The position numbers and the translations under genes were made by a program. The notes beneath the pieces were generated by a model that worked only from the letters and a program-made list of their open reading frames with translations, had not been told where the DNA came from and ran no database searches. 64,000 bases of DNA, taken from Deltaproteobacteria bacterium. GTDB lineage: Bacteria > UBA10199 > JACPAL01 > JACOUP01. Below are positions 2,686 to 48,641 of this stretch, in pieces (position 1 is the first letter of the stretch; each line of letters begins with the position of its first letter). Location of the stretch: positions 836,864 to 900,863 of the forward strand of contig JACOUP010000008.1 of NCBI GenBank assembly GCA_016177765.1, written 5' to 3'.

Positions 2686-2693
2686 TAAAAATG

Positions 2694-2874: not shown

Positions 2875-2897
2875 TCTCTCAAAGTCAAACAGGACTA

Positions 2898-3227: not shown

Positions 3228-3250
3228 GACTTTCCTCCTTTCTTTAAAAT

Positions 3251-30379: not shown

Positions 30380-30430
30380 AATCATTTGAACCTTTACAAT
30401 CGTCCAGTTATCGTCTATTATTCGTCTAAC

Positions 30431-31459
30431 ATGTTTCAACCTAAATTCAGCGTATCCGATTTATTATTAAATAATATCAAGAAGATAGCTATCTTCACAA
30501 CAGAACTAAACCGCCAATCTTTTTCTAAAACCGTGTTAGCCAGTTTTGAAAAAAAAGCCAATGTCCTCTCTACTCATACCTCCACCAGCATCGAAGGGAA
30601 TCCGTTACCGCTGACGGAAGTCAAAAAACTTTTGAAATCAAGACCTGAAAATATTCGGGATACGGAAAGAGAAATTCTCAATTACAACCGTATACTGGAA
30701 GAAATGAACGAAAAAATAAAACGGGGTTCCATCGCAATCGACATCCCCTTCATTTGTTGTGTTCAGCAAGAAATCACCACCGGTCTTATCGAAAAATTCC
30801 GGTGTGGGAAATTACGCACGGAACCAATTTTTGTCAATGATCCGCGAAGCGGAAAAACGGTTTATTGGTCTCCGGATCATCGAGATGTTCCAAAGATGAT
30901 GGATAACCTGATCCGGTTTGTAAAAGAAAAACGGGGTCACATTGAACCTCTGATCTTGGCCGGTATTTTTCACAAGGAGCTTGTCATCATTCATCCCTTT
31001 ATGGATGGGAACGGACGTACAGCACGTCTTGTAGCCAAGGCCCTGCTTGCCGACATGGGCCTCAATACATTCAATCTTTTTAGTTTCGAAAATTATTACA
31101 ACAAAAACGTTGCCGCCTATTTTCAAAATGTTGGGATATTGGGAAATTATTATGAACTGTCAGACACTATCGATTTTACGCAATGGCTGGAATATTTTAC
31201 CGGTGGTATTATCGATGAATTGTTGCGTGTCAAAAAAGAACTAGAGACGGAACTGGCATCGCCAGAGCTTGTGTTACAATCGCATCACAAAAAATTACTC
31301 GATTTCATCAAAAAGAACGACTTCATCACTGATCGCGATTATTCAAAATTGACCCAACGGGCCAAGGCCACACGGGCACTCGATTTTAAAAAATTGTTGG
31401 AGATGGATCTCATTAAGCGCTTCGGTAAAGGAAGGCTGACGCATTATAAAATGAAATAA
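30431..31459 (+). CDS. Fic family protein
   Basis: Canonical Fic motif HPFMDGNGRTARL. The gene and its flanks are markedly AT-rich relative to their neighbours. Confidence 0.85.
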   Translation: MFQPKFSVSDLLLNNIKKIAIFTTELNRQSFSKTVLASFEKKANVLSTHTSTSIEGNPLPLTEVKKLLKSRPENIRDTEREILNYNRILEEMNEKIKRGSIAIDIPFICCVQQEITTGLIEKFRCGKLRTEPIFVNDPRSGKTVYWSPDHRDVPKMMDNLIRFVKEKRGHIEPLILAGIFHKELVIIHPFMDGNGRTARLVAKALLADMGLNTFNLFSFENYYNKNVAAYFQNVGILGNYYELSDTIDFTQWLEYFTGGIIDELLRVKKELETELASPELVLQSHHKKLLDFIKKNDFITDRDYSKLTQRAKATRALDFKKLLEMDLIKRFGKGRLTHYKMK

Positions 31460-32980: not shown

Positions 32981-33146
32981 AAATCCTCCTGATGCCCCTC
33001 AATCGGGGCAATGATTATTTTCTCACTGAACGGTACCCAAATATGAAACGGGTTGTCCACGTTTAAAATGGGCTCTTTGAGGTTCCCGTTTTTGTATGTA
33101 CCGGTATGTATGTACCGGGTACACGCCTAAATCCCTGAAAAATAAA

Positions 33147-33331
33147 GGGGTGGGATTCGCCCTTCGCTAAAGACAGGCCAATCACGCTCAGGGCGTCAGC
33201 GCCTCACTTCCGGCGGCCGGAATTGGCCGCCTCATCCTCCCTCATTGGTCGGCGTTCGGCGCCGTTCTCATCCCACCAACAGAATTCAATAAAAAAGCCT
33301 CCACGAGGGAGGCTTTTTTTATTGATGCTCC
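33147..33331. repeat. Composite repeat copy A (units U1 + U2): tRNA 3-prime-end mimic, GC hairpin, and perfect terminator hairpin aaaaaagcctccacgagggaggcttttttt
   Basis: Near-identical to 45407..45673. U1 is 33147..33249 and U2 is 33250..33331. The terminator hairpin is at 33291..33320. Confidence 0.85.
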
Positions 33332-33340
33332 CCGTATTGG

Positions 33341-33775
33341 GTGCGAACCCGAACTGAACTCCGGCGTTATAAAACGTTTACCATTGAGTTCCATGGGGGC
33401 GTCTTTACCGGATTCCGGAACTACACCCACTACCTCGTCCGGCCTGACGAACCGATTCCCCTTCAATTGCTCCGCAAGACTCACGTCAACATAGGTCCAC
33501 CACGGCCAAAATGCCACCCTATTTCAGGCCAGCCTCTTATGTACGGCCAAACCCCCTTCGGGTTCAAGAACATCAATGGCACCCTTATAGAAGACCCCTT
33601 GGAGCAATTCATCCTCAAACAGATGCGGGAAATGCGCCAGAAGGGGTCTAGCCTCAACGAGATTGCCCGCTATTTAACGAATTCTGGGATCCCGACCAAG
33701 AATGGTGGACGGTGGCAGAGCAATACAGTGAATCAAATCTTGTCGCGTCTTAATTCTGGTTCACGATCTTTTTAA
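33341..33775 (+). pseudogene. remnant of a large serine recombinase (recombinase domain only; catalytic resolvase domain missing)
   Basis: PFGFKNINGTLIEDPLEQFILKQMREMRQKGSSLNEIARYLTNSGIPTKNGGRWQSNTVNQILS matches the serine-recombinase recombinase domain. Only 144 aa; no resolvase catalytic domain upstream. Confidence 0.6.
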
Positions 33776-33795
33776 ACCAATGCATTCCCATCGGC

Positions 33796-34452
33796 TCACT
33801 TTCTGAATCTCTTATAAATCACCGGAACAAGCGACAACAGCACGAACAAAATCGTTGAAAGGATCAGATGGAAGGTCGCCTTCTCTTTGGCTCCCGTTGC
33901 CCCGCTTAGAAGGGAGGCGGCGAAGTAGGTATAGACAAAGGTGCCGGGGATCATCCCCAAAAAAGAGGCAAGGGCGTAGTCGGTAAATCGGACCTTGGAA
34001 AGACCGGCACCGAAGTTGATTCCGTTGAAAGGGAAAAGAGGGACGAGCCTGAGATAAAAGGTCAGGCGAAAACCGTGACTCGCCGCTTGTTCATCGAACT
34101 CCTTCCATTTTCCTTTCAGAAAACGCGAGACAAAATCCCGTCCCAAGTATCGTGCCCCGAAGAAACCGGCACCGGCGGCAAGGTTCGAGGCAATCACGTT
34201 GTAGAAAAATCCGGGGATGACCCCATACAGGGCACCGATGGCTAAAGTCAGGGCCGAACCGGGAAGACCAAACAACCCCCCGATGCCATAGACAAGAATG
34301 AGAACAATCGGAATCCACCAGAGTTCATGGGCTGATTTTGTAAGGGCGATGAGATGGCTTGGAGTCAAGAGTTGCCGCAAGGGTGTAAAAAAGTAGGCGG
34401 CGAACCCGCCAACCAAGATCAACAGAAAAAGAAGTGGCTTAAAATTCTTCAT
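33796..34452 (-). CDS. TVP38/TMEM64 (DedA-like) family membrane protein
   Basis: DedA/SNARE-associated signature (GxxxGFxxxG...FPFNGINFGAG). Confidence 0.75.
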   Translation of the reverse strand: MKNFKPLLFLLILVGGFAAYFFTPLRQLLTPSHLIALTKSAHELWWIPIVLILVYGIGGLFGLPGSALTLAIGALYGVIPGFFYNVIASNLAAGAGFFGARYLGRDFVSRFLKGKWKEFDEQAASHGFRLTFYLRLVPLFPFNGINFGAGLSKVRFTDYALASFLGMIPGTFVYTYFAASLLSGATGAKEKATFHLILSTILFVLLSLVPVIYKRFRK

Positions 34453-35062
34453 CGAGATCCGAGAGTGTTTTTAAAAGTTCGACCTTGAGGCGGCTTCTGT
34501 TGGCCTTTTCAAGAGTCTTATTGAGAACCTTTTCCGTACTCCAAGGAATTCCTTCAAAAAGAAAGGGATGCGCCTTCTTCATCCCGATCAGATAATAACC
34601 CCCGTCCTTGGCCGGGCCGAGGACAAGATCGGCTTTATCCAGATGATCAAAGGCATCGCACAAGAGTGATCGGTCTATCTCGACACAATCGGTGCCAATT
34701 AAGACGGTTCGGTCTGAACCATTCACTAACGATTCCTGAAAGGCCGCTGACATTCGTTGTCCCAAATCTCCATCACCTTGCGGCTTTATCTCCAAAGATG
34801 GAAACCATTGCCTGAAATCGTTTTCCTTTTGAGGAGGATCGAAACATAGAGTCCGTCGATACTCACCATTCAATGGAAGCGTCTTTTTTATGACCGTCTC
34901 GATCATTTCCCGATAGCGAAGGGCCGCCTCGACTGCGCCCACGGTTCGGGCCAATCGGGTCTTCACTTTCCCTGCCTCTGGGTACTTCGCAAAGATGAGG
35001 AGACGGTTGTTCAACAACAGTTTCCTTTCTGAGGCATCTCTCCGACCACTTTCAATCCGCAA
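34439..35062 (-). CDS. TIGR04282/DUF2064 family protein (arsenosugar-cluster associated)
   Basis: LLIFAKYPEAGKVKTRL N-terminal motif of DUF2064. The true start is probably a TTG near 35020. Confidence 0.7.
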   Translation of the reverse strand: MRIESGRRDASERKLLLNNRLLIFAKYPEAGKVKTRLARTVGAVEAALRYREMIETVIKKTLPLNGEYRRTLCFDPPQKENDFRQWFPSLEIKPQGDGDLGQRMSAAFQESLVNGSDRTVLIGTDCVEIDRSLLCDAFDHLDKADLVLGPAKDGGYYLIGMKKAHPFLFEGIPWSTEKVLNKTLEKANRSRLKVELLKTLSDLDEEF

Positions 35063-36057
35063 TCAAAAAGCCCATAGTGGGTAGAGAGATCGCCGGTCAC
35101 GTTGAAGTGTGAGGCATACCGTGTCTGTTGAAGCATCGCGGCGGTATTGCTACAAACCGGAACCGGTCGTCCTTTTTCAAAGAGGTGATGGTCATCCAGA
35201 AAGAAGGCATGAGGTGATTCCGGAATTGTTCCCAAGTAGGTAGCGATCTGTCCGTAATCCTCACATCGGTCTTCGAGTTTCATTTTGAATGCCCGGATCG
35301 TCGTCGACCAGAAGTCGATCATCCCCGCCTTTGCCTCCACCCCCGGATTTTTCAACTCAATCCGGGAACGGGAGGCAACACGATAATCGTGGCATCCAAC
35401 CTCAAGAAGAAGACGGCGAAAGTCTTCGAGGTAAAGGGCACCACCGAGGCACTCACCCAAGAGGACTGGATCTTCCGACAATTCCTTCGGCATCCGGCGA
35501 CCGGTAAAAATATCAGAAAAGTAAAGCTCTCCGCCTGGCTTCAAGACACGAAAGATTTCGGAGAAGACCCGACGCTTATCGGATGAGAGATTGATGACGC
35601 AGTTCGAGACAATCAGATCGACGGAGTTATTTTTGATCCCAAGCGATTCAAGATCCTCGATGTATCCCTTTAAGAAACGGATGTTCGATTGTGAGTAGCC
35701 AAACTGCCTCATCTGGTAGGGGAGATGTCGTCTTGCCACTTCCAGTTGTTCGTCGGTCATATCGACGCCGATGACCTGACCTTCCGGACCGACCAACTTG
35801 GAAAGGATGTAGGAATCGCGTCCGGTGCCGCACCCAAGGTCCAGGACCGTCAGCCCTTTCAAGACCGATGGGATCGGAGAGCCACAGCCATAACATTTTT
35901 CGATAATCTCCGGGTGAATCATCTTCACAATTTTACGGAGATGGGACGGAAAACTATTGGTGCCGCAACAGGCGTTGGTCTTGAGGTCTTTTTTTCCCGT
36001 CAGGACCTTCCCGTAATAATTTTTAACTTCTTCTTTTGGATTCATTATCTGTGACAT
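35011..36057 (-). CDS. arsM: arsenite S-adenosylmethionine methyltransferase
   Basis: SAM-binding VLDLGCGTG, the ArsM-typical SNCVINLS motif, and conserved cysteines (N-terminal CC, C-terminal CC). Confidence 0.8.
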   Translation of the reverse strand: MSQIMNPKEEVKNYYGKVLTGKKDLKTNACCGTNSFPSHLRKIVKMIHPEIIEKCYGCGSPIPSVLKGLTVLDLGCGTGRDSYILSKLVGPEGQVIGVDMTDEQLEVARRHLPYQMRQFGYSQSNIRFLKGYIEDLESLGIKNNSVDLIVSNCVINLSSDKRRVFSEIFRVLKPGGELYFSDIFTGRRMPKELSEDPVLLGECLGGALYLEDFRRLLLEVGCHDYRVASRSRIELKNPGVEAKAGMIDFWSTTIRAFKMKLEDRCEDYGQIATYLGTIPESPHAFFLDDHHLFEKGRPVPVCSNTAAMLQQTRYASHFNVTGDLSTHYGLFDCGLKVVGEMPQKGNCC

Positions 36058-36075
36058 GCGAATTTCCTCCCTTTC

Positions 36076-37032
36076 TTAAATCAGTGAACCGGAACAGGAG
36101 CTTCCAGCACCTGCGGTACAACCGTAACAGTGATTCGCAAACTGAATCGGGTCGGATGCCAGTTCATCAAATGACTCGATCTCCCAAATCGTTCTTCTTT
36201 TTCCTCCAAGTGGAATCTCAAGCATCTGATTAAAATCACAATCGTAGATTTTGCCATCCCAGCTTATGGAAACGAGGTTGCGACACATCACATGACCGGC
36301 CGCCTCTTGGTTGAAATGGGTCACCAGAAGGTCGGTGTATTGATCCAACTCACCTCGACGTTCCAAATAATCGTGAAATCTCTTGATCGGCATGTTGGTG
36401 ATCGTGAGCAGGTGATTAAATTCGATGTCGAAGAGTTCTTTCAGTTCCTTTTTGTAATCGTCCTCCAACTCCGATTGAGGTGGTGGTAGGAAAGGACCGA
36501 CCGGATTGTAAACAAGATCAAGGAGAAGACCGGTTCCCTCTTTTCCATATCCCAACTCATTCAGGAGCCGAAGCGCCCGGATACTTTTATCAAAGACCCC
36601 GTGGCCCCGTTGGGCCTCGACGTTTTCTTTAGAGTAACACGGAAGTGATGCGACGATCTGAACACGATGTTCCTTGAGGAAACCCGGAGTCTCCTCCTGG
36701 CCCTTTTGAAAAAGAACCGTCAGATTACAGCGATCAATCACCTCGCGTCCGAGGTTTCTCGATTCCTCAACCAGAAAACAAAAGTTCGGATTGAGTTCCG
36801 GCGCCCCGCCGGTCAGATCAACCGTCCGAATCGTGGGTGACTTCTTCAAAAGTTCCATGAGCCGTTCGGCGATCTTTCGCTCCATGATCTCGGTCCGCTT
36901 CGGCCCCGCCTCTACATGGCAATGAAGACAGGCGAGATCACACAGCTTGCCGACATTGATCTGCAAAATCTCAAGCGGCTTCCGTCTGATTTCGAGCCGG
37001 TTCTTTTTTAATATCTCCATGAACGGGATCAT
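36076..37032 (-). CDS. arsS: arsenosugar biosynthesis radical SAM protein ArsS-like
   Basis: CxxxCxxC radical-SAM motif (CDLACLHC) and a C-terminal cysteine cluster CYGCTAGAGSSCSG. Confidence 0.75.
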   Translation of the reverse strand: MIPFMEILKKNRLEIRRKPLEILQINVGKLCDLACLHCHVEAGPKRTEIMERKIAERLMELLKKSPTIRTVDLTGGAPELNPNFCFLVEESRNLGREVIDRCNLTVLFQKGQEETPGFLKEHRVQIVASLPCYSKENVEAQRGHGVFDKSIRALRLLNELGYGKEGTGLLLDLVYNPVGPFLPPPQSELEDDYKKELKELFDIEFNHLLTITNMPIKRFHDYLERRGELDQYTDLLVTHFNQEAAGHVMCRNLVSISWDGKIYDCDFNQMLEIPLGGKRRTIWEIESFDELASDPIQFANHCYGCTAGAGSSCSGSLI

Positions 37033-37660
37033 GAAAAACCCTCCGTCTAAAATTGACAATTATTTCCAACGAAACCCCCAGTCGCCAGAAAATCATCGTG
37101 AGCCAATTGACCAGCGTTGTCTTGAGATAACCGTGTCGTTCCCATCTCCTGCTACTTGTCACTGCTTTCTTCGGGTAGAAACAAAGAGGGCCTAAGGTCT
37201 TCATCTTTTGAATGAGCAGGACATCCTCCAAAAGTGGTGCCTCCGGGTAACCCCCCAACTTTTTAAAATGGGCCTTGCGAATGAAAATCGCCTGATCGCC
37301 GTAGGGGAGTTGAAAAATTCTTTCGCGAAGCCGAACACCAAACTCGATCAGACAACTCTTGAAACCATTTTGGTCCAACGCGAATCGAAAGGCCCCGCCT
37401 ACGAGTTCCGGCCTTTGATTCATGACTTGGGCAAGTTCGATAAGATCATCCGGATTCACTTTTGTGTCGGCATGAAGAAAAACGAGCAAGTCTCCTTTTG
37501 CCTTCGCCGCACCCACATTCATCTGATAGGCACGATTGGCGATTCCTGTCTTTTCCGCATCAATAACGATGACCTCCAATTGAGAATCTTTCTCAAGTTC
37601 GGAAAGATTTCGCTTGAGATGAACGCCGTCGTTCAAAGAAGGAATGATGACGCTGATCAT
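36971..37660 (-). CDS. family 2 glycosyltransferase (TIGR04283-like, arsenosugar-cluster associated)
   Basis: GT2 N-terminus (ISVIIPSLN...DAEKT). Positioned upstream of arsS/arsM. Confidence 0.7.
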   Translation of the reverse strand: MISVIIPSLNDGVHLKRNLSELEKDSQLEVIVIDAEKTGIANRAYQMNVGAAKAKGDLLVFLHADTKVNPDDLIELAQVMNQRPELVGGAFRFALDQNGFKSCLIEFGVRLRERIFQLPYGDQAIFIRKAHFKKLGGYPEAPLLEDVLLIQKMKTLGPLCFYPKKAVTSSRRWERHGYLKTTLVNWLTMIFWRLGVSLEIIVNFRRRVFHDPVHGDIKKEPARNQTEAA

Positions 37661-39084
37661 TCGAACCTCCATTGGAAAAATCTTTTCAGCCATTTTTGTG
37701 TTCGAGGAGAAAGTCGGGATCGCTGATAGGTGTCGGCGATCCGTTTGGAGATTTCGGCGAGTGTCGGATAGATGTGAATCATCGAGGCGACTTTTTTCAG
37801 TCCGATCCTTTGGTGCATCGCCAACGCAAGTTCGTGCAGGAGATCCCCGGCATGAGAACCGACGATGGTTACACCCAACAACTGGTCCGATCCCTTCTCG
37901 GTCAACACCTTGATGAATCCCTCATCCTCACGGTCACAGACGGCGCGATCCAAATCCTTGAAGGAATAAGAATAAATGTCATGGTGGAGACCCTTTTCCT
38001 TGGCTTCTTTTTCGTTCAAGCCAACTCGCGCCACCTCCGGATCGGTGAAGGTGCACCAGGGGACAACACGGTAGTCGATCTTCGATTTTCCGGGAAAGAG
38101 TGCATTTCTTAGGATCAGTCGAGCCTGAAAATCGGCGGTGTGGGTGAATTGATAAGGACCGACGACATCGCCACAGGCATAGATATGTTTGGAGGAAGTT
38201 CGGAGAGTGTCGTCCACCTCGATCCCTTTTTTTGAGAATTTTATTCCCGCCTTCTCCAAGTCAAGGTTGTTCACGTTTGGGGCACGACCGACGGCGACTA
38301 GAATTTTGTCGAACGGGATTCGTTTTTCCTTTTGGCCTTCTTGTACGGTCAGCTCAAAAGATTCACCCGATTTAATTTCAACCGCCTTGTGTCCCGTCAA
38401 GACCTCAATCCCTTCACGTTCAAATCTCTCCTTGATGAGAGCAGAAACCTCCACATCCTCCCGGATAAGAAGGGAGTCCAACATTTCAACGACAGTAACC
38501 TTCGATCCCAATCGGGTGAAGACCTGTGTCAGTTCGGCACCAATCGGGCCTCCGCCGAGGACGACAAGCCGCTTTGGAACTTCCGTAAGCCCCCAGATAT
38601 TATCGCTGGTCAGGATCGGCACTTCTTGAATCCCCTTGATCGGTGGCACAAAGGGGGAGGCTCCGGTAGCAATGACAAATCGTTTTGCCGACAGGGTGAC
38701 GGTTCCATCGGTGATCTCGTAGGGGGAGATGAATCGAAAGGAACCAAAGTGAAGAGCAACACCGAGTCCACGGAACCGGTCGGGTGAATCATGCGGCTCC
38801 AATTTTTCCTGCACCGACCGAACCGATTTCATGATTTGGGAAAGATTGATTTCCGGATTGAGATCGGAAAGGCCAAACCGATTCCCCGTCCTCGCATCAT
38901 ATAAAAGCTTCGCCGTTCGGATGATCGCCTTCGATGGGACACAACCGGTATTGAGGCAATCGCCGCCCATCTTCTGTTTCTCGACTAAGGCGACCTTTAC
39001 TCCCAACCCTGCCGCACCGGCCGCCGACACGAGGCCACCCGATCCGGCGCCGATGACAATCAAGTGGTATTTTCTCAGGTTCAT
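37657..39084 (-). CDS. FAD-dependent pyridine nucleotide-disulfide oxidoreductase (dihydrolipoyl dehydrogenase/MerA-like core, no NmerA and no C-terminal Cys pair)
   Basis: GAGSGG FAD motif, redox-active GDCLNTGCVPSK disulfide, and a dimerisation domain. Confidence 0.8.
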   Translation of the reverse strand: MNLRKYHLIVIGAGSGGLVSAAGAAGLGVKVALVEKQKMGGDCLNTGCVPSKAIIRTAKLLYDARTGNRFGLSDLNPEINLSQIMKSVRSVQEKLEPHDSPDRFRGLGVALHFGSFRFISPYEITDGTVTLSAKRFVIATGASPFVPPIKGIQEVPILTSDNIWGLTEVPKRLVVLGGGPIGAELTQVFTRLGSKVTVVEMLDSLLIREDVEVSALIKERFEREGIEVLTGHKAVEIKSGESFELTVQEGQKEKRIPFDKILVAVGRAPNVNNLDLEKAGIKFSKKGIEVDDTLRTSSKHIYACGDVVGPYQFTHTADFQARLILRNALFPGKSKIDYRVVPWCTFTDPEVARVGLNEKEAKEKGLHHDIYSYSFKDLDRAVCDREDEGFIKVLTEKGSDQLLGVTIVGSHAGDLLHELALAMHQRIGLKKVASMIHIYPTLAEISKRIADTYQRSRLSPRTQKWLKRFFQWRFE

Positions 39085-39110
39085 GGAAGCCTCTTCAATT
39101 CATGAATTCT

Positions 39111-39545
39111 TTATGAATTGCAAGAGCTACAACTCGCCGCTGTAGGTGTCGCGTAAACAACCCCCACCACCGCGCCATAAACGAGGTGACCGATCAGACT
39201 TCCCATGGCCGGAGCCACGGCACCGGAGAAGAATCCCATCCCCATCATCGGCATCACGACAATCTGGGCCATGAGCCAAGGGGCAATCCCGTACAAGGCA
39301 CCACGGATGATTGCCGGTCCGGGAAGTCTGTCACTAAAAAAGGTATACCCAAAGGCGAGAACCGTCCCGATCATAAAGTGGGCGACCCAACCGAGTGTCA
39401 CCGATCCCCCCATGACCCCGGCCAACATCCCCGCAATATCCATCTTCGGTAACCCCATCATCGGGGCGCCGAAGGTGGCAACGATGGTGATTGCCACCGT
39501 CCCCAGAATCCCTGCCAGAATCCCCTTCTTAATGTTGATCTTCAT
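39111..39545 (-). CDS. hypothetical membrane protein with C-terminal Cys cluster
   Basis: Start assigned to MKINIKKG with a Shine-Dalgarno upstream. Four TM helices; C-terminal CSSCNS. Confidence 0.45.
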   Translation of the reverse strand: MKINIKKGILAGILGTVAITIVATFGAPMMGLPKMDIAGMLAGVMGGSVTLGWVAHFMIGTVLAFGYTFFSDRLPGPAIIRGALYGIAPWLMAQIVVMPMMGMGFFSGAVAPAMGSLIGHLVYGAVVGVVYATPTAASCSSCNS

Positions 39546-39654
39546 AAGTCCCCCTTTTGTTTGGTTTCTATACGTTTTGATGCCGGGGACAGGAAAAAGT
39601 CTTGAGAGATTTTGTCTTCCCATTCCTTGAGATTATGCTAGATTTGCAACCCTT

Positions 39655-40278
39655 GTGGAAAGTCTTCCAAAATCCCAAGATGTTTCCCCCGTTGCCGCAT
39701 CTAACACCAGTGAGAAGGATTTGATTCGGGGCCTCCGCGAGAAGGCCGATTGGGCCTTTCGCGAATTGATCTCTCGCTGGTCGGATAAACTGTACCGGCT
39801 TTCACTCCGGTTCTTGAGACGCCCGGAGGAGGCCCAGGAGATCGTTCAGGAGGTGTGCTTGAAGGTGGTGGAAAAGATTGACACATTTGAAGGTTCCTCT
39901 TCATTATATACTTGGCTCTATCGGGTCACCGTGAACGAGTCGTTGATGAGGCTTCGGCCCGATAAAGGGAAGAAAACCGTTTCGTGGGAGGATGTCTTGC
40001 CAAAATATGAGAATGGCATCCACACGCAGGAGTTTTCGGATTGGGCAAAACTCCCGGACGAGAGGTTTGCCGAAAAAGAGATACAAGAGTTTGTCCAGTC
40101 GGCCATTGAACTCCTGCCCGATGATCTCAAAACCGCCTATCTCTTGAAGGATGTCGAGCAACTGCCGGAGGATGAGGTCTGCAAGGTTTTAGAGCTCACC
40201 AAACCAGCCATGAAAAACAGGGTTCACCGTGCCCGGCTATTCTTGAGAAAAAAGATTGAGGCGAAGTATGTCCGTTAA
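39655..40278 (+). CDS. RNA polymerase sigma-70 factor, ECF subfamily
   Basis: Region 2 (LYTWLYRVTVNESLMRLR) and region 4 motifs. Confidence 0.8.
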   Translation: MESLPKSQDVSPVAASNTSEKDLIRGLREKADWAFRELISRWSDKLYRLSLRFLRRPEEAQEIVQEVCLKVVEKIDTFEGSSSLYTWLYRVTVNESLMRLRPDKGKKTVSWEDVLPKYENGIHTQEFSDWAKLPDERFAEKEIQEFVQSAIELLPDDLKTAYLLKDVEQLPEDEVCKVLELTKPAMKNRVHRARLFLRKKIEAKYVR

Positions 40279-40555
40279 GCACAAAATGATCCGGGCCATG
40301 TTTGGCCTCATGGGACTCCCGACCTGTGAGGAGGTGGAACAGTTCGCCTACGACTTTTTGGAGGAGGCTTTGGATTCATCGACAATGAAGGCGGTGGGGC
40401 GACACCTCAGGGCGTGTAAGAATTGCCAGCGGTTCATCGCGGCCTATCGCAAGACGGCCGCGTTGGGGAAAATGTTTGAGAAACCGCAACTCGATCCGGA
40501 ATTCAAAGAGAGTCTCTTTGAGTTTCTGGTTCAAAAGGCAGGAGGAAGGGTATGA
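40256..40555 (+). CDS. zinc-finger (zf-HC2) anti-sigma factor
   Basis: C..H...C..C pattern (PTCEE...HLRACKNCQRF). Overlaps the sigma factor stop. Confidence 0.6.
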   Translation: MRRSMSVKHKMIRAMFGLMGLPTCEEVEQFAYDFLEEALDSSTMKAVGRHLRACKNCQRFIAAYRKTAALGKMFEKPQLDPEFKESLFEFLVQKAGGRV

Positions 40556-41175
40556 AAGAGATTTTGATTCCGCTCGGTGTCAGTTTTCTCTCCGGGATGA
40601 TCTTGGGACTGGAACGGGAGATGTCGCACAAACCGGCCGGACTCCGCACCCAGGTCCTTGTGAGCCTGGGGACGACCCTCTTTATTATTTCGGGGCAGTT
40701 GTTTGGCGGAGAGGTCATCCGACTTGCCGCCAATGTGTTGACCGGGTTGGGGTTCTTGGGGGCCGGTGTCATCTGGCAACAGAAGGGAAATGTTCGGGGA
40801 CTCACAACGGCGGCACTCATCTGGGTTAATGGAAGCCTTGGCGTTGCCATCGGATTTCAACAATACGTCTTGGCCGGTGCAGGAGTTCTTCTCACTCTCA
40901 TTGCCCTGCGGCTGTTGGGATTTGTCGAAGAAAAAATTAAGAGCAAGTGTCGGGTTTTCCGTTACGAGGTTGTCACAAAAGAGAATGAAAAAGTCTTGGA
41001 GACGATCCATGAAGCCTTGAATCGTTGTCATTTTCAGGAAGATCCACTCACCTTTGAAAAAGGGGCTGATGCAGTCACGGTTCGTTTTGCCTTTTGCAAC
41101 CCGCCGTTACGGCATCAGGAGTTTGTCGAAAAACTTCGCAAGATGACTGATGTCCTCGGGGTCAAAACCGAATGA
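40552..41175 (+). CDS. MgtC/SapB family protein
   Basis: GLEREMSHKPAGLRT signature of the MgtC family. Confidence 0.8.
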   Translation: MKEILIPLGVSFLSGMILGLEREMSHKPAGLRTQVLVSLGTTLFIISGQLFGGEVIRLAANVLTGLGFLGAGVIWQQKGNVRGLTTAALIWVNGSLGVAIGFQQYVLAGAGVLLTLIALRLLGFVEEKIKSKCRVFRYEVVTKENEKVLETIHEALNRCHFQEDPLTFEKGADAVTVRFAFCNPPLRHQEFVEKLRKMTDVLGVKTE

Positions 41176-41798
41176 CCGATGAGAATCACCGTCTACGATT
41201 AAAATACCAATGGACCTCATGGGTCTATGACCTCCTCGATTATCCGTGGGAGCGGCAATACCGAAAGTGGCGGCCGGAGATCTTGAAAGACGTTAACGGC
41301 CGGGTTTTGGAGGCCGGAGTCGGAACAGGACACAACCTGCGTCACTATTCTTCGTCCGTAAACCTCACTGCCATTGACTTAAGTTCGGGGATGCTTGGTC
41401 AGGCGCGAAAACGGGCAAGACAGGTCCGATGCAGAGTGGACCTCCAAGAGGCCGATGCCACAAACTTGAACCGATTCACCGATGGAATTTTTGATTGGTA
41501 CGTCTCGACTTTCATGTTCTGCGTAATGCCCGACCGCTTGCAACCTATTGCCCTGAAAGAGATGGCGCGAATTCTTAAACCGGGGGGGAGGTTCCGCCTG
41601 ATTGAGATCCTTTATTCCAAAGACCGCGCCCTACGACTCCGCCAGAAAATCCTCGCTCCGTTTGTCGAGTTTGTCTATGGGGCACGGTTCGATCGAAAAA
41701 CCTTGGATCATCTTCGCGCGTTTCCATCGCTCAAGGTAACTCGCACGACCTATTTGAAGGCGGATACCTATCTCTTGATTGAAGGGGAAAAAATTTAA
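41172..41798 (+). CDS. class I SAM-dependent methyltransferase
   Basis: [10 protein letters not shown] motif I and post-I acidic residue. Confidence 0.75.
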
Positions 41799-43837
41799 GG
41801 ATTATATTTTTCAAAATCGTTGATGAGCTTTTTGGCTTCTTCCAAGCTCGTTGTCGGGCGCTTGCAGATATTATTCTCGCAGACGTAGATCGTTGGTTGA
41901 TCGTTCTGCATTGTTTTGCCTTGCAGGATCGCGGGGTATTTTGAATCACCGAGAGGGGCAGCCTCCCCCATTGCCAAGACCTTGTTGGGGATAAAAGATT
42001 CAAAAAAGAATTTTCTGATTTCCAGCATTGTTGGATCATCCAGCCTTCCGACGACGGCCACCTCTTTGGACCGATCGAGGTGATAATCAATAGCTGTCAT
42101 CAGCATGGAATACCCGGCGGGGTATGAGGCGGCAATGCCCGACACGGCGTTCAAAAGTTCCCCCAATCTCTTTTGATACCCTTGATCGAGGGTCAGATCA
42201 TGAAGTTTTAAGAGATTGAGGACCGAAACGGAATTTCCGGATGGGGTGACACCATCATCAAATTCTTTCTTACGAACCAGAAGTGATTTTTCTTCCGCCT
42301 CGGCCAGGTAATAGCCGCCATTCTTTTGATCCCAAAAGAGTTTATCCTGCTGGGATTGAAGATCGACTGCCCACCCAATCCATTGCGGGTCAAAGTCGCT
42401 TTCATACAGGGTGAGAAGACCATGGATGAGAAAAGAATAGTCGTTGACCGTTCCGGAATAGCGGCTCTCGCCATCGCGGTATCTCCGTAAAAGTTTTCCG
42501 TCCTGATATAGCTTTTGCCGGATGAAGGCGGCCGACTTCCGGGCGGCATCGAGATAACGAGCCTCTCCCAAGACCTGGTATCCCTTTGCCATGGCGGCAA
42601 TCATCAACCCGTTCCAGGAAGTCAGGATCTTGTCGTCCTTGTGCAACGGCGGGGCTTTAGATCGTTCTTCCTTGCTGAGACGATAATAATCTCCCTCTTT
42701 TCCGACCTCACCGGCATCTTGTGCAGAGTAAAATCCCCCTTCGGGGTGGGTCATCTCCCTCAAGACATAATCAAGGGATTGTGTGACAACCTCGGCATAC
42801 CTTTGCTTTTTGGTGATTTGGTATGCTTCGAGATATGTCCAAACGAGGAGCGCATTGTCGTAGAGCATTTTTTCATAGTGGGGTTCATTCCAGTCTTTAT
42901 CTGTTGCATAGCGATGAAACCCGCCTCCAATGTCGTCATAGATACCTCCACGGGCCATCGCATCAAGGGTTTGCGTCACCATGGCAAGGGCCTTGGGGCT
43001 GCCCGTCCTGCGATGGATTCTCAAGAGAAGTGAAAGCTCCATGCTGTGTGGAAACTTCGGTGCACCTCCGAAACCACCGTTTGTTTTGTCGAAGTTTTTC
43101 TCCAACTGTTGAAACGTCTTTTGGAGAGTGCGGGTATCCGCATTTGCCGTGCCGGAGACTTCGCTTTCTTTTTGAAGAAACTCGGTGATTTTGGTCCCCG
43201 ACTCCAGAATCTTTTCCGGATTCTTTTGCCATGAGTCCTGAATTTGAGAGAGAAGTTGAAGGAATTGTGGACGCCAGAAGAACGTTCCGCCAAAAAACGG
43301 TTTCAAATCGGGAGTCAGAAAAATAGAGAGCGGCCAGCCGCCGCGGCCGGTCATCCCGACGACCGCATCCATGTAGATTTGATCGACATCCGGGTGTTCC
43401 TCCCGATCCACTTTAATACTGATAAAATCTTTATTGAGGATTTCCGCAACATCCTCTCTTTCAAACGAATCTTTCTCCATCATGTGGCACCAGTAGCAGG
43501 TCGAATAACCGATGGAGAGAAAGATGATCTTGTTTTCCTCCCGTGCCGCTCGAAAGGCTTCATCGCCCCACGGGAACCAATGAACAGGATTGTCTTTGTG
43601 CTGGAGAAGGTAGGGACTTTTTTCTTCGCCGAGGCGGTTGTATTTTTTGATGGAGGTTTTGCCTTGATTAGGGTTGACGGACTCGACGCGGGAAGAAAAA
43701 TAATCTCCCTTCCAGAAGGCAATGGCCCCCAGTATCAGTACGCCATCCCTCCTGACCTGCTCGTGAAGATCGTCCGGGAGAAATTCATTGAGAAGACCCC
43801 AACGCTGACGCTCCTCCAAAGGTATCCCAGCGATCAA
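41795..43837 (-). CDS. thioredoxin domain-containing protein YyaL (DUF255 + six-hairpin glycosidase-like domain)
   Basis: SPYLLQH...WFPW...[11 protein letters not shown] thioredoxin-like N-terminus, then a long alpha/alpha-toroid region. Confidence 0.8.
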
Positions 43838-44003
43838 GAAAACGAATACGTCAGTACCATCGCCCTTCTCGACGTTCCGGAGTCAGAGGTCAGAGAGATG
43901 CTCAAAGACCAACCTCAATTCCTCGCCCACTTCCTCGATTGCCGAATCCATGCAAGAGAGGTGCTGGAAGGAAAACTCGCCGACCTAAAAACACACCTTC
44001 GGG

Positions 44004-44273
44004 TCAGTTGAGCTTGGAGGTCTTGAACCCCGTCTTGTTCGCTTCCTGAATGATCTGGTCAGCGGTCGCGGGTGATCCGTACTTGCAAATCCCCTCTCCC
44101 TTTTCCCGATCAATCGTGATCTCCTTGCAGAGTGATGAGAGTTGCTTCTTGACCTTCGCCTCGCACATCCCGCAGGTCATCCCCTCGATCTTCATCTTGA
44201 GAGTCTGTGGTTCCGCCGCTGACAGCAGTCCCGGCAGAAGTAATGCCATGACGACAGTGATGATTTGTTTCAT
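44004..44273 (-). CDS. merP: periplasmic heavy-metal-binding protein MerP-like
   Basis: Signal peptide then an HMA domain with GMTCGMC. Start at MKQIIT, preceded by GGAGG. Confidence 0.7.
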   Translation of the reverse strand: MKQIITVVMALLLPGLLSAAEPQTLKMKIEGMTCGMCEAKVKKQLSSLCKEITIDREKGEGICKYGSPATADQIIQEANKTGFKTSKLN

Positions 44274-44563
44274 TTTGTTCCTCCTTGGATTTCTTTGACT
44301 GCCTTTGCAATATCTCCCAAACAGCAACTCTTCTTTGGATTGACAGCTTCGCACCGACAGTTACCGGCTTTTATTTGCGCCCTTAAAAAATCCGGTATTG
44401 TTGTCTTTCCGGTTTTTTTGATCTCCTGCTCGATATCCTGCCTAAAAATATGAAAACAGTAACAGATCGGCGATGAATCATACCTCTCTTTCACAGGAGA
44501 TGCCGGGGCTTGGGCTGTCTCCTTGTCGCTGACTTCACACTCTCCGTCAGAACAGTTTCCCAT
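44270..44563 (-). CDS. Cys-rich BFD-like [2Fe-2S]-binding domain protein (tentative)
   Basis: ICYC...CRC...SCC cysteine pattern with spacing reminiscent of BFD-like domains. Sits between merT and merP. Confidence 0.4.
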   Translation of the reverse strand: MGNCSDGECEVSDKETAQAPASPVKERYDSSPICYCFHIFRQDIEQEIKKTGKTTIPDFLRAQIKAGNCRCEAVNPKKSCCLGDIAKAVKEIQGGTK

Positions 44564-44573
44564 AGTTGGCTCC

Positions 44574-44918
44574 TTAAGATGCAATCAAATGCGGTCCGAT
44601 CAAAAAGATCGCCGCCAATGCCGTTGAGATCCACAAGAGAATCTTCGTCCATTTCTGACTCGTCGGGTTGCAGAGCTTGGCATCCTCGCCTGCCTTGCCG
44701 GCAGGCAGGCAAACCGCCTGTTTCCTTCCATAAACCAGGTAAAAGGCGGTCCCCAATAAGAGGATGGTCAGGATCGTAAAATACTTCTGATAGGGGACCA
44801 GGGCCGAGGCAAAACCAACAGTTCCGGTCAGTCCCAACAAAAGAAGCGGCAAGGCACAACAGGAACCGAAAAGGGCGGTCGCACTCGCCCCAACGGCGGT
44901 GATTCGTGAGAGTTGCAT
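44574..44918 (-). CDS. merT: mercuric ion transporter MerT
   Basis: Three TM helices with the GSCCALPLL vicinal Cys pair in TM1 and a second Cys pair (C..C) in the cytoplasmic loop. Confidence 0.7.
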   Translation of the reverse strand: MQLSRITAVGASATALFGSCCALPLLLLGLTGTVGFASALVPYQKYFTILTILLLGTAFYLVYGRKQAVCLPAGKAGEDAKLCNPTSQKWTKILLWISTALAAIFLIGPHLIAS

Positions 44919-45349
44919 CAGTTCTTTCCCCCTCTCTTTCGACGACCTGCCGACTCGATAATCTCACAAATGCAGGTCGTTTTACTCTTGCGAACCCTTT
45001 TCCAATTTCTAAGAAGACCCCCGATTGTTTTCTTCAACCGACCCATCTCCTTCATCTTTTGATGCAGGGTCGAGATTTTCGTCTCAAGGAGTTCCACCAC
45101 ATGTTCGCAGGGCTTTCCTTTAAGCCTCTTTGCCTCGATCACCTTCTTGATTTCATCAAGGGTCAATCCAAGCCCCTGTGCCGTCTTGATGAATCGGATA
45201 ATATCAATTGTTTCCTGCGGATAGAGACGGTAGCGAGAGGAAGACCTCGGAGCCACAGGGACGAGACGCTCCTTTTCATAGTACCGGACCGTCCACGGAT
45301 CGACACCACACTGTTTTGCCAACTCGCCAATAAACAACCCCGAATGCAT
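44918..45349 (-). CDS. merR: MerR family transcriptional regulator
   Basis: N-terminal HTH (IGELAKQCGVDPWTVRYYE), coiled-coil, and C-terminal cysteines. Its stop abuts the merT start. Confidence 0.8.
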   Translation of the reverse strand: MHSGLFIGELAKQCGVDPWTVRYYEKERLVPVAPRSSSRYRLYPQETIDIIRFIKTAQGLGLTLDEIKKVIEAKRLKGKPCEHVVELLETKISTLHQKMKEMGRLKKTIGGLLRNWKRVRKSKTTCICEIIESAGRRKRGGKN

Positions 45350-45406
45350 AGAGGCATTATAAACCTTTGAGTCGACTCTAAGGTCAAATTGTTTTTTTAC
45401 GGCATC

Positions 45407-45695
45407 CGGCGTTCGGCGCCGTTCTCATCCCACCAACAGAATTCAATAAAAAAGCCTCCACGAGGGAGGCTTTTTTTATTGATGCTCCGGGGGTGGGATT
45501 CGCCCTTCGCTAAAGACAGGCCAATCACGCTCAGGGCGTCAGCGCCTCACTTCCGGCGGCCGGAATTGGCCGCCTCATCCTCCCTCATCGGTCGGCGTTC
45601 GGCGCCGTTCTCATCCCACCAACAGAATTCAATAAAAAAGCCTCCACGAGGGAGGCTTTTTTATTGATGCTCCGGGGGTGGGATTCGAACCCACG
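45407..45695. repeat. Composite repeat copy B (U2-U1-U2), ending in a tRNA 3-prime-end-like fragment (T-arm GTGGG-TTCGAAT-CCCAC + acceptor half, minus-strand sense)
   Basis: U2 at 45407..45488, U1 at 45489..45592, U2 at 45593..45673, tRNA-like 3-prime fragment at ~45670..45694. No D or anticodon arm follows. Confidence 0.85.
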
Positions 45696-45797
45696 ACCAA
45701 GTGATTACAGGTTCCCCATCACTTTCATGATGGCCTGGACTATCTCTTTACCCTCTTTTAGAGGGTAGTGGGCGCTCGAGGGGAGATTATTCTTTCG

Positions 45798-46232
45798 TCA
45801 CTCCCTAGTCTCTGCACCTTCCTCCCACTTTTGAGGTTGGGAAGCTTGGCTCAGGATTGCCGTGTCCCTTAGCTGGGATTTAGGGTTCCCTGAGTTCACC
45901 CACTTTTCGACCACGGTCACCCGTGGAAGCTGCATTGAGGCATGGGTTTCACGGTGACAATTCGCACAGAGCATCACACATTTATCCAATTCCTTTTGGA
46001 CACGTTGCCAACTTCGCGAATGACCATACTGCGAAATGGCAAAATCCTTTTGGAGAGGATCTAAATGGTGAAACTCCAAGGCCTCCAGGCATTTCATGTA
46101 ACCGCAAAGGTTACATTGGCCGCCTTTGTAGTCGATTGCCATTTGACGGACTTTCTTTCTCCGTTTAGCAACCGCCTTAATATTCGCTTCTCGGCGGTCC
46201 TGATACCTTCTTGTCTCCCGTCTAGCCACCAT
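45798..46232 (-). CDS. HNH endonuclease family protein
   Basis: CNLCGY...HHLDP...CANCH HNH/zinc-finger motif. Confidence 0.75.
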   Translation of the reverse strand: MVARRETRRYQDRREANIKAVAKRRKKVRQMAIDYKGGQCNLCGYMKCLEALEFHHLDPLQKDFAISQYGHSRSWQRVQKELDKCVMLCANCHRETHASMQLPRVTVVEKWVNSGNPKSQLRDTAILSQASQPQKWEEGAETRE

Positions 46233-46418
46233 ACCTCCTTTCTACAGTCACCTACTCTGCCGCTGAGCTACCCCGGAAAAAATAGGATGCCGACCTGGTT
46301 TCCTAACAGATGTCCAGAGACGGTTCAAGTGGAGAATTTCAAAGCGTTTTTAGTGTTCCCTCTAGTCTTCCTACCCAAAAAGTGATAGATTGGGCAAAAT
46401 CTAAAAAAAGGGGGGGGT

Positions 46419-46913
46419 ATGTTTTCCAAAGAATCGTTGGCCATTCTTGTTTCCGTCATCGGGTTCGGTTTGTGGCTCGGGTGCGGTGGGGACAGCAGTA
46501 CGAGCAAGACAGATACTCCTACAAAAACCAGTTGCGATGGCACGGTGGAGACGGCGTTGGTTGGCAATTGGCGGATTTTGACGGAGACCAAATATTATAC
46601 GAATAGCCTTCCCCCCTCCACGGTCACCCCTCCCAGCACGTTGGTGGTGCTGGATGCCGACGGTGGCTGGACCTTCGGCTCCTCGAGTGGCACCTGGTGT
46701 GTCGCCTCGATTGTCGCCAGTGACTGGACCACCTGGGCCATCGCGGATTATGGAGCCAAGCGGAAATTGATTTTAACCAACTGGAATGACACGACGGAAC
46801 AGGGACCGATCGATGAACCGACCGGTGCCATCGATAACCTCTGGATCATCTACAGCGATACCGGCGATAGCGGCCCCGGCACGATCTGGATGAAATTGGG
46901 GGCGAGTGGTTGA
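46419..46913 (+). CDS. hypothetical lipoprotein
   Basis: Signal peptide with lipobox LGCGG. Confidence 0.5.
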   Translation: MFSKESLAILVSVIGFGLWLGCGGDSSTSKTDTPTKTSCDGTVETALVGNWRILTETKYYTNSLPPSTVTPPSTLVVLDADGGWTFGSSSGTWCVASIVASDWTTWAIADYGAKRKLILTNWNDTTEQGPIDEPTGAIDNLWIIYSDTGDSGPGTIWMKLGASG

Positions 46914-46991
46914 AAATAACCCTTTAAAACCTGATAAATACCCCGCAACGATCCTTGAGGACAGACGATAAGTCTCGTCAATCGAGGATTT

Positions 46992-48641
46992 ATGGGGCTA
47001 ACACAAAGTGATGCTTTAGGCCTTAGGGATACGCTGACCAGTCTTTGGAATCGCGCCCGTCGGGAACAATATTCCCAAGTCCCAACGTCGGAGCAGATGA
47101 CTAGGGCCGAACAGGCATTGGATTGGCTCGCGGCCGGAGAGAGTGACAGGCTCGCCGAGGACGCAAAGGCCCAAGAGGCGTTGCGGGTGGTCCTCTCTTT
47201 TGGCGGGCGGTACCTCCATTTTTCGCGGGAGGCCAGCTTTGCCAACCTCCTTGCTGAGGCATGGACCGTTTTAAGGAGAATCGTTGAGGGAGGGAGTCCG
47301 CCGGCCGCTGGCAAGGCGGCGCCAACGCAACCTTTTAGTCCCTCTCTTTTTTCTGCAAGCCCCTTTCCCCCATTGCTCCGGGCAGACGGCTTTGAGAAGA
47401 CCTTTGAAGGGTCTCTCGATCAGGTTCGTCAGGCCTTGAGGGGATCACCCGAGGGGGGCAGGATTTTTACACCCCAGGAGGCCGACCTTGTCAGTCGGGA
47501 TATAGAAACCCTCCAGCGAATCATAACCGATGAAATAGTCCCGCGGTTTGGCATCTATCTCTCACCGAGATACAGCGTAGTCGTTCTTTCCAGACAGGGG
47601 GCGCCGTATGCCTGGATCATCCGGCACCGGCCGACAGGGCATGTGGTGACCAGCCGGTTTTCTGACCAACGGAGACCTTCTCTCATTTTTCCTTTTTCCC
47701 GGAAAGAGGTGATGCTCCGTTTTGACCGGCAAACCGACACCCTCTTTTTAGCCGGGAGAACGGCGGCTGGGAATCCATTCTCACTGGAGGGGCGTTTTGC
47801 CCGTTCCTCGGAGGGACGGTTTATTCGGGTTCAGGGCAGGCAGAGGGATGCTGACCCCTGGATCCGAAATTTTTTTGGCATTGATGAATGGCTGCAAGAA
47901 ATGTGCGGGGCTAAGGGGGATAATGAGGGTGACCGGGTCGATTATTTTCGTGCCGGGAACGACCGGATGCTCACCCGGTGGGACCCCTCGGGACTTTTTA
48001 AAGATGCCACCGTACAGAATTGGAAGGGAGGACTCTTTGGTTTAAGTCCGGTTATTGCCAGAGATGGACGTCGTTACCATTATGACCCGGGTAAGAGGCT
48101 TTACCCTCGATGGGCCGGCATTGTCAGGGGGCCCAACCAGCGACCGATCGTCTTTGAGCAGGTCCACGACCTGGGACTCAATGTTATTCGTTACGAGATC
48201 GCCCACCCCTACCTTGTTGCCCGTCTGGAGGTTCTGGGTGTTTCGGAGGTCGAGATCATCTTCCGTTTGGTCGAGGAGGATGGCGATTCCATGCAGGTTC
48301 GGGTCGATTTAATGGGAGAAGATGTGATTTTGGAACCGGAGGGAGGCCGAGGTCGGGGAGGCCCCGGGTTCGCCCCTGTTGGTCCTTCACCATCCATCGT
48401 GCCTGGCGATCCAAATACCCCTTTTCGAACGGAAGGACTTCGGACAGTATGGGAAGGGCTGACTCCTGGGGAGAAGGCACAATTTGGGAACCTGCCGGAA
48501 GGGTCGGGTGACACACCATTGTATGAAGCACTCTTGGTCGAGAGGGTCGGTTCAGAGGCGGTTCACGGCGGGGTCCTTTTAGAACGGGGGGCGGCGGAGA
48601 GGGCGGCCCTTGGGAGTCGCCGGATGGTTTTTGAACGATGA
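46992..48641 (+). CDS. hypothetical protein (549 aa, no recognisable domain)
   Basis: Long ORF with strong GC3 bias; Arg/Gly-rich; no motif recognised by eye. Confidence 0.5.
   Translation: MGLTQSDALGLRDTLTSLWNRARREQYSQVPTSEQMTRAEQALDWLAAGESDRLAEDAKAQEALRVVLSFGGRYLHFSREASFANLLAEAWTVLRRIVEGGSPPAAGKAAPTQPFSPSLFSASPFPPLLRADGFEKTFEGSLDQVRQALRGSPEGGRIFTPQEADLVSRDIETLQRIITDEIVPRFGIYLSPRYSVVVLSRQGAPYAWIIRHRPTGHVVTSRFSDQRRPSLIFPFSRKEVMLRFDRQTDTLFLAGRTAAGNPFSLEGRFARSSEGRFIRVQGRQRDADPWIRNFFGIDEWLQEMCGAKGDNEGDRVDYFRAGNDRMLTRWDPSGLFKDATVQNWKGGLFGLSPVIARDGRRYHYDPGKRLYPRWAGIVRGPNQRPIVFEQVHDLGLNVIRYEIAHPYLVARLEVLGVSEVEIIFRLVEEDGDSMQVRVDLMGEDVILEPEGGRGRGGPGFAPVGPSPSIVPGDPNTPFRTEGLRTVWEGLTPGEKAQFGNLPEGSGDTPLYEALLVERVGSEAVHGGVLLERGAAERAALGSRRMVFER

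Follow-up and report, generated by a model that had tools for sequence, protein, structure and literature searches.

A recombinase-less genomic island beside an intron-split tRNA-Asn gene, probably belonging to a large serine recombinase element family

The window, the 64-kb stretch of deltaproteobacterial DNA analysed here (contig JACOUP010000008.1, positions 836,864–900,863), contains a segment of ~12.5 kb (33147–45674) that lies just 3′ of a tRNA-Asn gene, is edged by long direct repeats and carries arsenic- and metal-related genes together with a small gene related to the first half of the Recombinase domain. We compared this island with loci from an NCBI metagenome-assembled genome (MAG; L099), from Logan (L100, L101) and from JGI and ENA metagenomes, among the last L105 (JGI Ga0209515_10000307) and L108 (OBEQ010001178.1). 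JGI contigs with the same tRNA were retrieved by the pattern of its intron/3′-exon junction. The source population was followed in the Logan assemblies SRR12113383–431, as k=31 contigs.

A sequence-only reading of this stretch had described a composite repeat, U1+U2, at 33147–33331 that recurs on the right as U2-U1-U2, and a repeat search of the window recovers it at exactly these positions. One direct repeat of 173 nt (33147–33319 versus 45490–45662) is 99% identical, and an 82-nt block, X (equal to U2; 33250–33331 versus 45407–45488), is 100% identical, with a third copy of X at 45593–45674 that is shorter by one T within a T-run. Such repeats are far beyond chance, because the remaining repeat families in the window reach only ≤50 nt at 60–83% identity. 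The order on the right is X-U1-X, with a period of 185/186. The repeats do bracket the segment, as had been claimed, but they make no simple attL/attR pair; instead they form a tandem array of a 186-bp unit, composed of c (the last 19 nt of the tRNA), Y (a spacer) and X, the terminator block.

On the tRNA-sense (minus) strand the locus reads tRNA / X-Y-c / X′-cargo-small open reading frame (ORF)-c″ / X-Y-c′ / flank, the repeat units opening with the last 13–19 nt of tRNA-Asn. Repeat and junction comparison places a full unit, c-Y-X, between X′ and the tRNA (45489–45674); the copy of c at 45484–45502 shares 19 identical nt with the tRNA 3′ end. X′, the inner right copy of X (45407–45488), abuts the cargo, and the X′/cargo breakpoint (45406/45407) falls within the exon-like part of X. 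The left composite repeat reads X-Y-c′ on the minus strand, where c′ repeats 13 nt of the tRNA-Asn 3′ end (CGAATCCCACCCC; 33147–33159, minus strand) and is identical to 45675–45687. Identity ends at 33146, and c′ marks the outer boundary of the inserted segment. Y, delimited by repeat comparison (33160–33241), has no significant or robust similarity to the tRNA-downstream DNA of nine relatives, and an exact 24-mer of it has no match in JGI metagenomes. A stretch at 33242–33285, on the plus strand like the small ORF, is tentatively a degenerate copy of the tRNA-Asn 3′ exon (score 24, p ~0.04 in the window); its counterpart, a pseudo-tRNA, stands out clearly in L109 (score 52 versus a null maximum of 32) and L111 (p = 0.002). 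A palindromic terminator-type hairpin with a 17-bp stem follows within X (33286–33325; further copies at ~45443–45482 and 45629–45667), and the copy nearest the tRNA (45667–45629) tops the list of terminator-like sites in the region, with the longest stem (17 pairs).

X begins at the same nucleotide, directly after the tRNA-end core position, in all three window junctions. Read on the minus strand these are ...GGGTTCGAATCCCACCCCC/GGAGCA-X at the tRNA, ...GAAGGGCGAATCCCACCCCC/GGAGCA-X after Y and ...CGGGTTCGCACCCAATACGG/GGAGCA-X after the cargo. The core, GGAGC, lies at 33327–33331 (minus strand) at the distal junction, at 45484–45488 and at the tRNA end (45669–45673). In the flank just outside c′, palindromes GTATGTACCGGTAT and GTATGTACCGGGTAC (33095–33128) look similar to the native hairpin found after the unoccupied tRNA-Asn of L105 and L106; they could represent the ancestral terminator of the tRNA.

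The tRNA-like end at the right repeat had been taken for a tRNA 3′-end fragment, and the intact target was to be sought elsewhere in the genome. It is instead the 3′ exon (45670–45707, minus strand; discriminator G73 at 45670; identical in L102, L105, L106 and L108) of a complete tRNA-Asn(GUU) gene, so that the intact target sits directly at the repeat. Its exons are parted by a 536-nt group I intron (45708–46243, minus strand; RF00028, 86.8 bits) between anticodon-loop positions 35 and 36; the Rfam match itself spans 45716–46007 (minus strand) and abuts the tRNA-like end. The 5′ exon (TCCGGGGTAGCTCAGCGGCAGAGTAGGTGACTGT; 46244–46277, minus strand) supplies the matching 5′ half. ARAGORN reports no tRNA at this site. 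When exon joins were compared, the sole one obeying the group I rule (U before the 5′ splice site, terminal intron G) unites 34 nt with 38 nt, and the joined exons fold as a canonical 72-nt tRNA-Asn(GUU) with U1-A72 and G73. The gene is intact. A tmRNA 3′ end had also been considered for the tRNA-like end and was rejected, Rfam placing the tmRNA gene at 63666–64000 (plus strand, truncated by the window end) and finding the group I intron next to the tRNA-like end.

Inside the intron, starting 11 nt past the 5′ splice site, lies a 144-aa ORF resembling an HNH homing endonuclease (45798–46232, minus strand). Its match to PF01844 (E = 0.0055, 17.3 bits) is under the 21.4 cutoff, the motifs HHLDP and CANCH are visible, and several of its 5,784 homologues are named HNH endonuclease. 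The split gene recurs in L099, L100 and L101 and in the JGI/ENA metagenome loci L102, L104/L107, L105, L106, L108, L109 and L112/L113, with intron scores of 73–102 bits where the intron is held in full and splice sites of the same form in seven of the seven loci extracted. Relatives show compensatory changes in the anticodon stem (GGTGA/TCACT versus GGGGA/TCCCT) and the T stem (GTGGG/CCCAC versus GCGGG/CCCGC, GCTGG/CCAGC and GTAGG/CCTAC), and L102 and L104 hold ORF-less versions of ~250 nt. Group I introns at position 35/36 of tRNA-Asn(GUU), some with HNH genes, have been described mainly from Patescibacteria and are rare elsewhere (Nakagawa et al. 2026, PMC13011429). The window intron shares with these its tRNA, insertion position and putative endonuclease family, as well as the habit of escaping standard tRNA finders; it differs in residing in a UBA10199-like ‘Deltaproteobacteria’ MAG lineage, where several genera-level relatives keep it with and without the ORF. 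It is a further member of this described type.

Two observations concern these RNA genes more loosely. Four Logan contigs begin at 46250, which is k−1 nt into a repeat node starting at the tRNA 5′ end (46250–46280); in those metagenomes the tRNA-Asn 5′ part must therefore have two contexts or more, through either a second copy of the gene or a variant strain. In L107, a 23S rRNA match (1792–5452) covers 3,661 nt against a model of 2,925 nt, and the excess suggests that the 23S gene of that organism holds an insertion or intron.

The same tRNA end is used by large serine recombinase (LSR) elements in relatives. Over 4,654 nt, up to and including the tRNA end ...CCCCCGGAGC, L105 and L108 show 100.000% identity, and then they diverge completely. 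Past the tRNA, L105 has the native hairpin and a GIY-YIG-like gene (judged from its translation), whereas L108 has a different hairpin and an LSR ORF on the opposite strand, which crosses the junction into the tRNA antisense (...MLRGWDSNPRP...). The two form a natural empty/occupied pair for an LSR element in a sister lineage. L104/L107 has the same arrangement with a complete LSR (Resolvase, Recombinase and Zn-ribbon domains); L108 has the C-terminal part of one. Both ORFs (L104 1214–2725; L108 4–846, stored orientation) read through the attachment junction into 3′-exon antisense, and their C-terminal codons must therefore differ between integrated and excised states. With the L105/L108 pair and L104/L107, the 3′ end of tRNA-Asn is thus a proven LSR insertion point, and X in the window starts at exactly the nucleotide where L105 and L108 diverge. 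Translations of the ORFs downstream of the tRNA in L099 gave no recognisable integrase.

At the opposite, tRNA-distal end of the island lies the 144-aa gene MBI1909834.1 (33341–33775, plus strand), which had been described as a serine-recombinase remnant. The protein matches only the first half of the Recombinase domain (PF07508, profile positions 5–50 of 102). Its 11 database relatives are all short as well (68–144 aa). Five copies of the ORF share a 116-aa block without indels, in which the proportion of non-synonymous differences (pN) is 0.08–0.23 against 0.51–0.94 for synonymous ones (pS), and dN/dS is 0.06–0.27 where dS is unsaturated. The ORF is a conserved short gene under purifying selection, not a pseudogene. 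In a profile comparison, residues 66–130 align to residues 168–232 of the L104 LSR at 22% identity. The AlphaFold model is of low confidence (mean predicted local distance difference test score 59.7), and its top fold matches are LSRs with E ≥ 0.56. A sequence search of the PDB gave nothing useful, and IMG/VR holds no relative of the ORF.

The start codon of the small ORF sits inside c″, behind the terminator, with no sigma-70-like promoter there. c″ is a conserved half-site of ~20 nt (33332–33350, minus strand), termed the P arm below, that weakly resembles the tRNA 3′ end. Its motif, GCTCC CC(G/A)NA(T/A)TGGGT.(C/A)GAA, is kept in the window, L109/L110, L111 and L114–L117. We had considered c″ to be merely a diverged tRNA 3′ end and replaced that view: c″ stays conserved while the tRNA-Asn sequence varies from genome to genome, which makes it specific to the element.

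In other genomes (L109/L110, L111 and L112/L113) the small ORF stands 2–5.5 kb from an oppositely oriented tRNA-Asn, and the cargo in between varies: an AAA ATPase and an S8 peptidase, hydrolases, or a decarboxylase. No LSR lies between the small ORF and the tRNA in the five cargo-bearing loci (the window, L109, L111, L112 and L114). Upstream of the ORF on the same strand, L109 and L111 carry a pseudo-tRNA-Asn, a palindromic terminator, GCTCC and the c″ motif; L112/L113 is without the c″ motif and the hairpin. The outer side of the module borders unrelated genes in every genome compared. In L111, a chimeric ORF (1736–2035) joins an N-terminal fragment of RidA (Ribonuc_L-PSP) to the conserved PFGY...NTINVIL block of the small-ORF family, and is a second, rearranged boundary module within one array.

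L114–L117 connect this module to the recombinase. Their homology to the window starts exactly at the core (33325), and the ~105 nt upstream of the core are ~93% identical to the LSR end of L108; L114 has this LSR-end/core/small-ORF unit twice. Such a junction is of attP type, joining both ends of the element. In this family, therefore, the conserved ‘P end’ consists of the small ORF and c″, and the LSR and its hairpin make up the ‘P′ end’.

The reading we favour, and hold to be probable, is that 33147–45674 is a recombinase-less and probably decayed member of a family of LSR integrative elements that insert after ...GGAGC/ of the split tRNA-Asn(GUU). Its cargo would have arrived by LSR-catalysed attP × attB recombination at the tRNA-Asn end, with c″ and the 144-aa gene, akin to the DNA-binding first half of the LSR recombinase domain, forming the tRNA-distal P end. 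The LSR gene would later have been lost from the tRNA-proximal end, where intact relatives carry it antisense into the tRNA. The 186-bp units could be scars of att sites, their number raised by renewed use of the restored core or through unequal homologous recombination; tandem arrays that arise because the core is restored at both element ends and used again are documented (Mageeney et al. 2020, PMC7192596). Loss or movement of the island today could come only through RecA acting between the perfect 82–185-nt repeats, or through an LSR supplied in trans. The small protein may serve as an accessory factor that binds the att half-site. The integrated element of the sequence-only reading stands in so far as foreign cargo lies beside a tRNA, is tied to serine recombination and is without a recombinase of its own; two of the four signature features on which it was built had been misread.

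Several points weigh against this reading. Profile annotation of all island ORFs finds no integrase or recombinase. The small ORF has no BLASTP match to the LSR of L104 or to that of L108; with likeness at the profile level only, the window element is linked to the L108 type through the L114 junction, not directly. Neither an empty site nor a second occupied state for this species was found among reference genomes and metagenome contigs. The k=31 graphs would fit an empty site and a separate circle just as well, and the compositional shift, given below, is moderate. A check for hybrid attL/attR arms finds the GGAGC core at all junctions, the P arm c″ kept and an attP-type junction in L114; yet the copies of X on the two sides of the cargo are 100% identical, a result that attP × attB exchange by an LSR does not predict, and in L109, as in the L105/L108 pair, one arm does differ from the other. 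Some later event has therefore to be assumed, be it duplication, gene conversion or insertion by RecA of a circle bearing X, or the assembler may have picked one of several graph-compatible paths.

The identity of X, together with the length and likeness of the repeats (82–185 nt, 99–100% identical), suits RecA better than LSR exchange. The islet between tRNA-Asn and the small ORF could be a homologous-recombination hot spot, swapped by RecA through conserved flanks after transformation or conjugation, the 186-bp repeats being a local tandem duplication of native tRNA-downstream DNA with no site-specific integration involved. That none of the five cargo-bearing loci has an LSR between small ORF and tRNA, and that the small ORF behaves as a conserved gene, agrees with such a history. 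The junction, however, is the exact nucleotide used by the LSR elements in L108 and L104, and the c″/small-ORF module is fused to an LSR end in L114–L117 and duplicated within arrays. It also adjoins unrelated outer genes in every genome, so the module is no stable chromosomal flank. We regard such a hot spot as unlikely, though more likely than the two alternatives that follow.

The 19-nt identity block from the T-loop to the 3′ end, CGAATCCCACCCCCGGAGC, could alternatively be the att core of a tyrosine-integrase tRNA island that has lost its integrase. The block starts in the T-loop, said by Williams in 2002 to be a typical sublocation for tyrosine integrases. A mycobacterial survey likewise ties tRNA and tmRNA attB sites to these enzymes: all listed attB sites that overlap such genes (16 of 29 sites) use a tyrosine integrase, and none comes from the six serine-integrase systems (PMC10654092). 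Against this, neither the island nor any of the ~15 related loci inspected has a tyrosine integrase, LSRs are the only recombinases found to abut this tRNA, and the distal end bears an LSR-domain gene; we hold the idea to be improbable. Less probable still is an assembly-path artefact, in which the chromosome would run flank-U1-X-tRNA (empty) and the cargo would be a separate circular or minority molecule threaded in by the assembler. The k=31 contigs all end k−1 nt into U1 or X, so they leave the order of repeat units unverified, and island genes occur in ~ten-fold fewer contigs than flank genes. Yet the window belongs to a 1.36-Mb contig, every unique junction in it is seen at 100% identity in independent samples, and a mixed population of occupied and empty chromosomes explains the coverage gap equally well; the segment would then still be a mobile island. 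The LSR reading explains the exact coincidence of junctions and the L114 junction better than any of these three alternatives.

An extension of the LSR reading is bolder, and we think it unlikely to be right: the module of recombinase-end hairpin, GGAGC core, c″ and small gene would be the portable attachment unit of a serine-recombinase cassette system at tRNA-Asn. Recombinase-less cargo, the ars/mer block of the window included, would be captured, stacked and exchanged in trans by the LSRs of autonomous relatives, and the small protein would bind the half-site to steer direction or block integration. If true, such cassettes would work much as an integron does, but with serine recombination and a tRNA gene as their basis.

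The Logan assemblies contain the same organism at 100% identity; contig L017, for example, covers 44441–45436. Flank genes of 141 aa and 164 aa occur in 12 and 9 Logan contigs, whereas the island genes for a 143-aa MerR-like protein and a 218-aa VTT protein, of similar size, occur in one each and the YyaL gene in none. These counts are consistent with an island present in a minority of cells, without proving it. Looking for an empty site in close relatives, as the sequence-only reading had suggested, was unproductive for this species: TypA of the window has 84%, 77% and 76% identity to uncultured ‘Deltaproteobacteria’/UBA10199-type MAGs, and none of those three nearest public relatives has synteny near TypA. 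Directly upstream of the tRNA, the genes for a 164-aa and a 549-aa protein (46419–48641) are orphans, occurring only in this organism among 5.8 billion proteins; the 549-aa protein has no relative in 185,579 species genomes either.

Composition was to be plotted across the segment, and it does set the island apart. Tetranucleotide distances in 4-kb windows are 190–256 in the island against 122–193 elsewhere, except for 228 at 30–34 kb, and GC content is ~0.03 lower (0.49–0.52 versus 0.52–0.55). This lends moderate support to a foreign origin. The 30–34-kb exception includes a Fic-domain gene (30386–31459; GC 0.44–0.45) just outside the left repeat, which may be older foreign DNA.

Most of the proposed cargo is borne out by profile searches. 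An arsenosugar-type cluster occupies 33796–37693 (minus strand), encoding a VTT-domain protein, a TIGR04282 glycosyltransferase (DUF2064), an ArsM-like methyltransferase, an ArsS radical SAM protein and a TIGR04283 glycosyltransferase. ArsS scores 444.6 bits on TIGR04167 (cutoff 300), and the glycosyltransferases score 203.9 on TIGR04282 (cutoff 134) and 189.5 on TIGR04283 (cutoff 182). The ArsM-like protein stays under its cutoffs (187.9 versus 263); MBI2067116.1, from a related MAG, belongs to the same 90%-identity cluster. An FAD-dependent pyridine nucleotide-disulfide oxidoreductase and a DUF6789 membrane protein follow (37657–39623, minus strand). The 475-aa oxidoreductase was considered as MerA and rejected: it scores below the MerA cutoff and has one CxxxxC motif and no C-terminal Cys pair. 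On the plus strand (39655–41798) are an extracytoplasmic function (ECF) sigma factor, a zf-HC2 anti-sigma factor, an MgtC-family protein and a class I methyltransferase, and beyond them a YyaL/DUF255 thioredoxin-domain protein (41795–43837, minus strand).

The mer part of the cargo, at 44004–45349 (minus strand), comprises a MerR-family regulator, a MerT-like protein, a 104-aa Cys-rich protein and a MerP-like heavy-metal-associated (HMA) protein. Here the claimed merR, merT and merP are mer-like matches below cutoff (MerR-like 94.7 versus 150.85; MerT-like and MerP-like also under the NCBIfam cutoffs), and the name that best suits this metal operon, which has no MerA, is mer-like. A tblastn search with the L104 and L108 LSRs matched only the tRNA antisense.

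Other features of the window lie away from the island. An ACR3 arsenite efflux gene is at 61512–62555 (minus strand), and a patatin-like phospholipase gene at 13278–14540 (minus strand) has weak similarity to lipases of the cyclic-oligonucleotide-based anti-phage signalling system (CBASS) and other anti-phage lipases. The palindrome GGGTG-N3-CACCC(T/A)(T/A)GG recurs as a short interspersed repeat, in either orientation, at 65–94, 1897–1931, 2631–2660, 17535–17599 and 48488–48537, and looks like a repetitive extragenic palindromic (REP) element.

Islands at tRNA genes are routine, and tyrosine integrases account for nearly all of them; this locus, taken with its relatives, points to an LSR family in an uncultured groundwater lineage. 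LSRs are valued tools for genome engineering, and the family, if confirmed, would offer new LSR/att pairs with a defined natural target as well as a model for the persistence and spread of recombinase-less metal and arsenic cargo. There is also a lesson for annotation, in that a ‘tRNA fragment’ beside an island can be an exon of an intron-split gene overlooked by standard tRNA finders.

Taken by itself, the island is an ordinary kind of genomic island with unusual details, and its layout recalls several known systems. In the staphylococcal cassette chromosome (SCC, SCCmec), Ccr LSRs insert at the extreme 3′ end of rlmH without destroying the gene; SCC elements have short core repeats at their boundaries (~18 nt), form tandem arrays, carry resistance cargo and include recombinase-less members that rely on recombinases in trans. 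The window family resembles SCC in its LSR-type insertion at the 3′ end of a housekeeping gene, its boundary cores, its tandem arrays, its recombinase-less members and its resistance-type cargo, a likeness of layout. Unlike SCC, it targets a tRNA gene, not a protein gene; its recombinase ORF runs through the junction into the tRNA antisense; one end bears a conserved gene encoding only recombinase-domain sequence; and its boundary repeats in the window are 82–185 nt, not ~18 nt. SSV1-type integrases are tyrosine integrases that overlap their own attachment site and are split by integration. The recombinase ORFs of L104 and L108 likewise cross the recombination junction, but only the last 13–25 codons of these LSRs are affected. 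The array also differs from an integron cassette array: neither IntI nor any other tyrosine recombinase was found in the island or related loci, and the boundaries are a ~520-nt protein-coding module, not attC sites.

In position the island also parallels the tRNA-gene islands and tandem arrays of integrative genetic elements catalogued with Islander/TIGER (PMC7192596). Shared are the site at the 3′ end of a tRNA gene, a second copy of the tRNA 3′ segment at the distal boundary, arrays built by re-use of a restored core, atypical composition and accessory cargo. Such islands normally employ tyrosine integrases, whereas the recombinases associated with this site are LSRs and the window island is without any; and at its middle boundary the window has, in place of a simple core repeat, a junction that is attP-like or duplicated. 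The element family thus departs from the usual tRNA-gene island in its LSRs, its intron-split tRNA target, its accessory gene limited to part of a recombinase domain and its stacked arrays.

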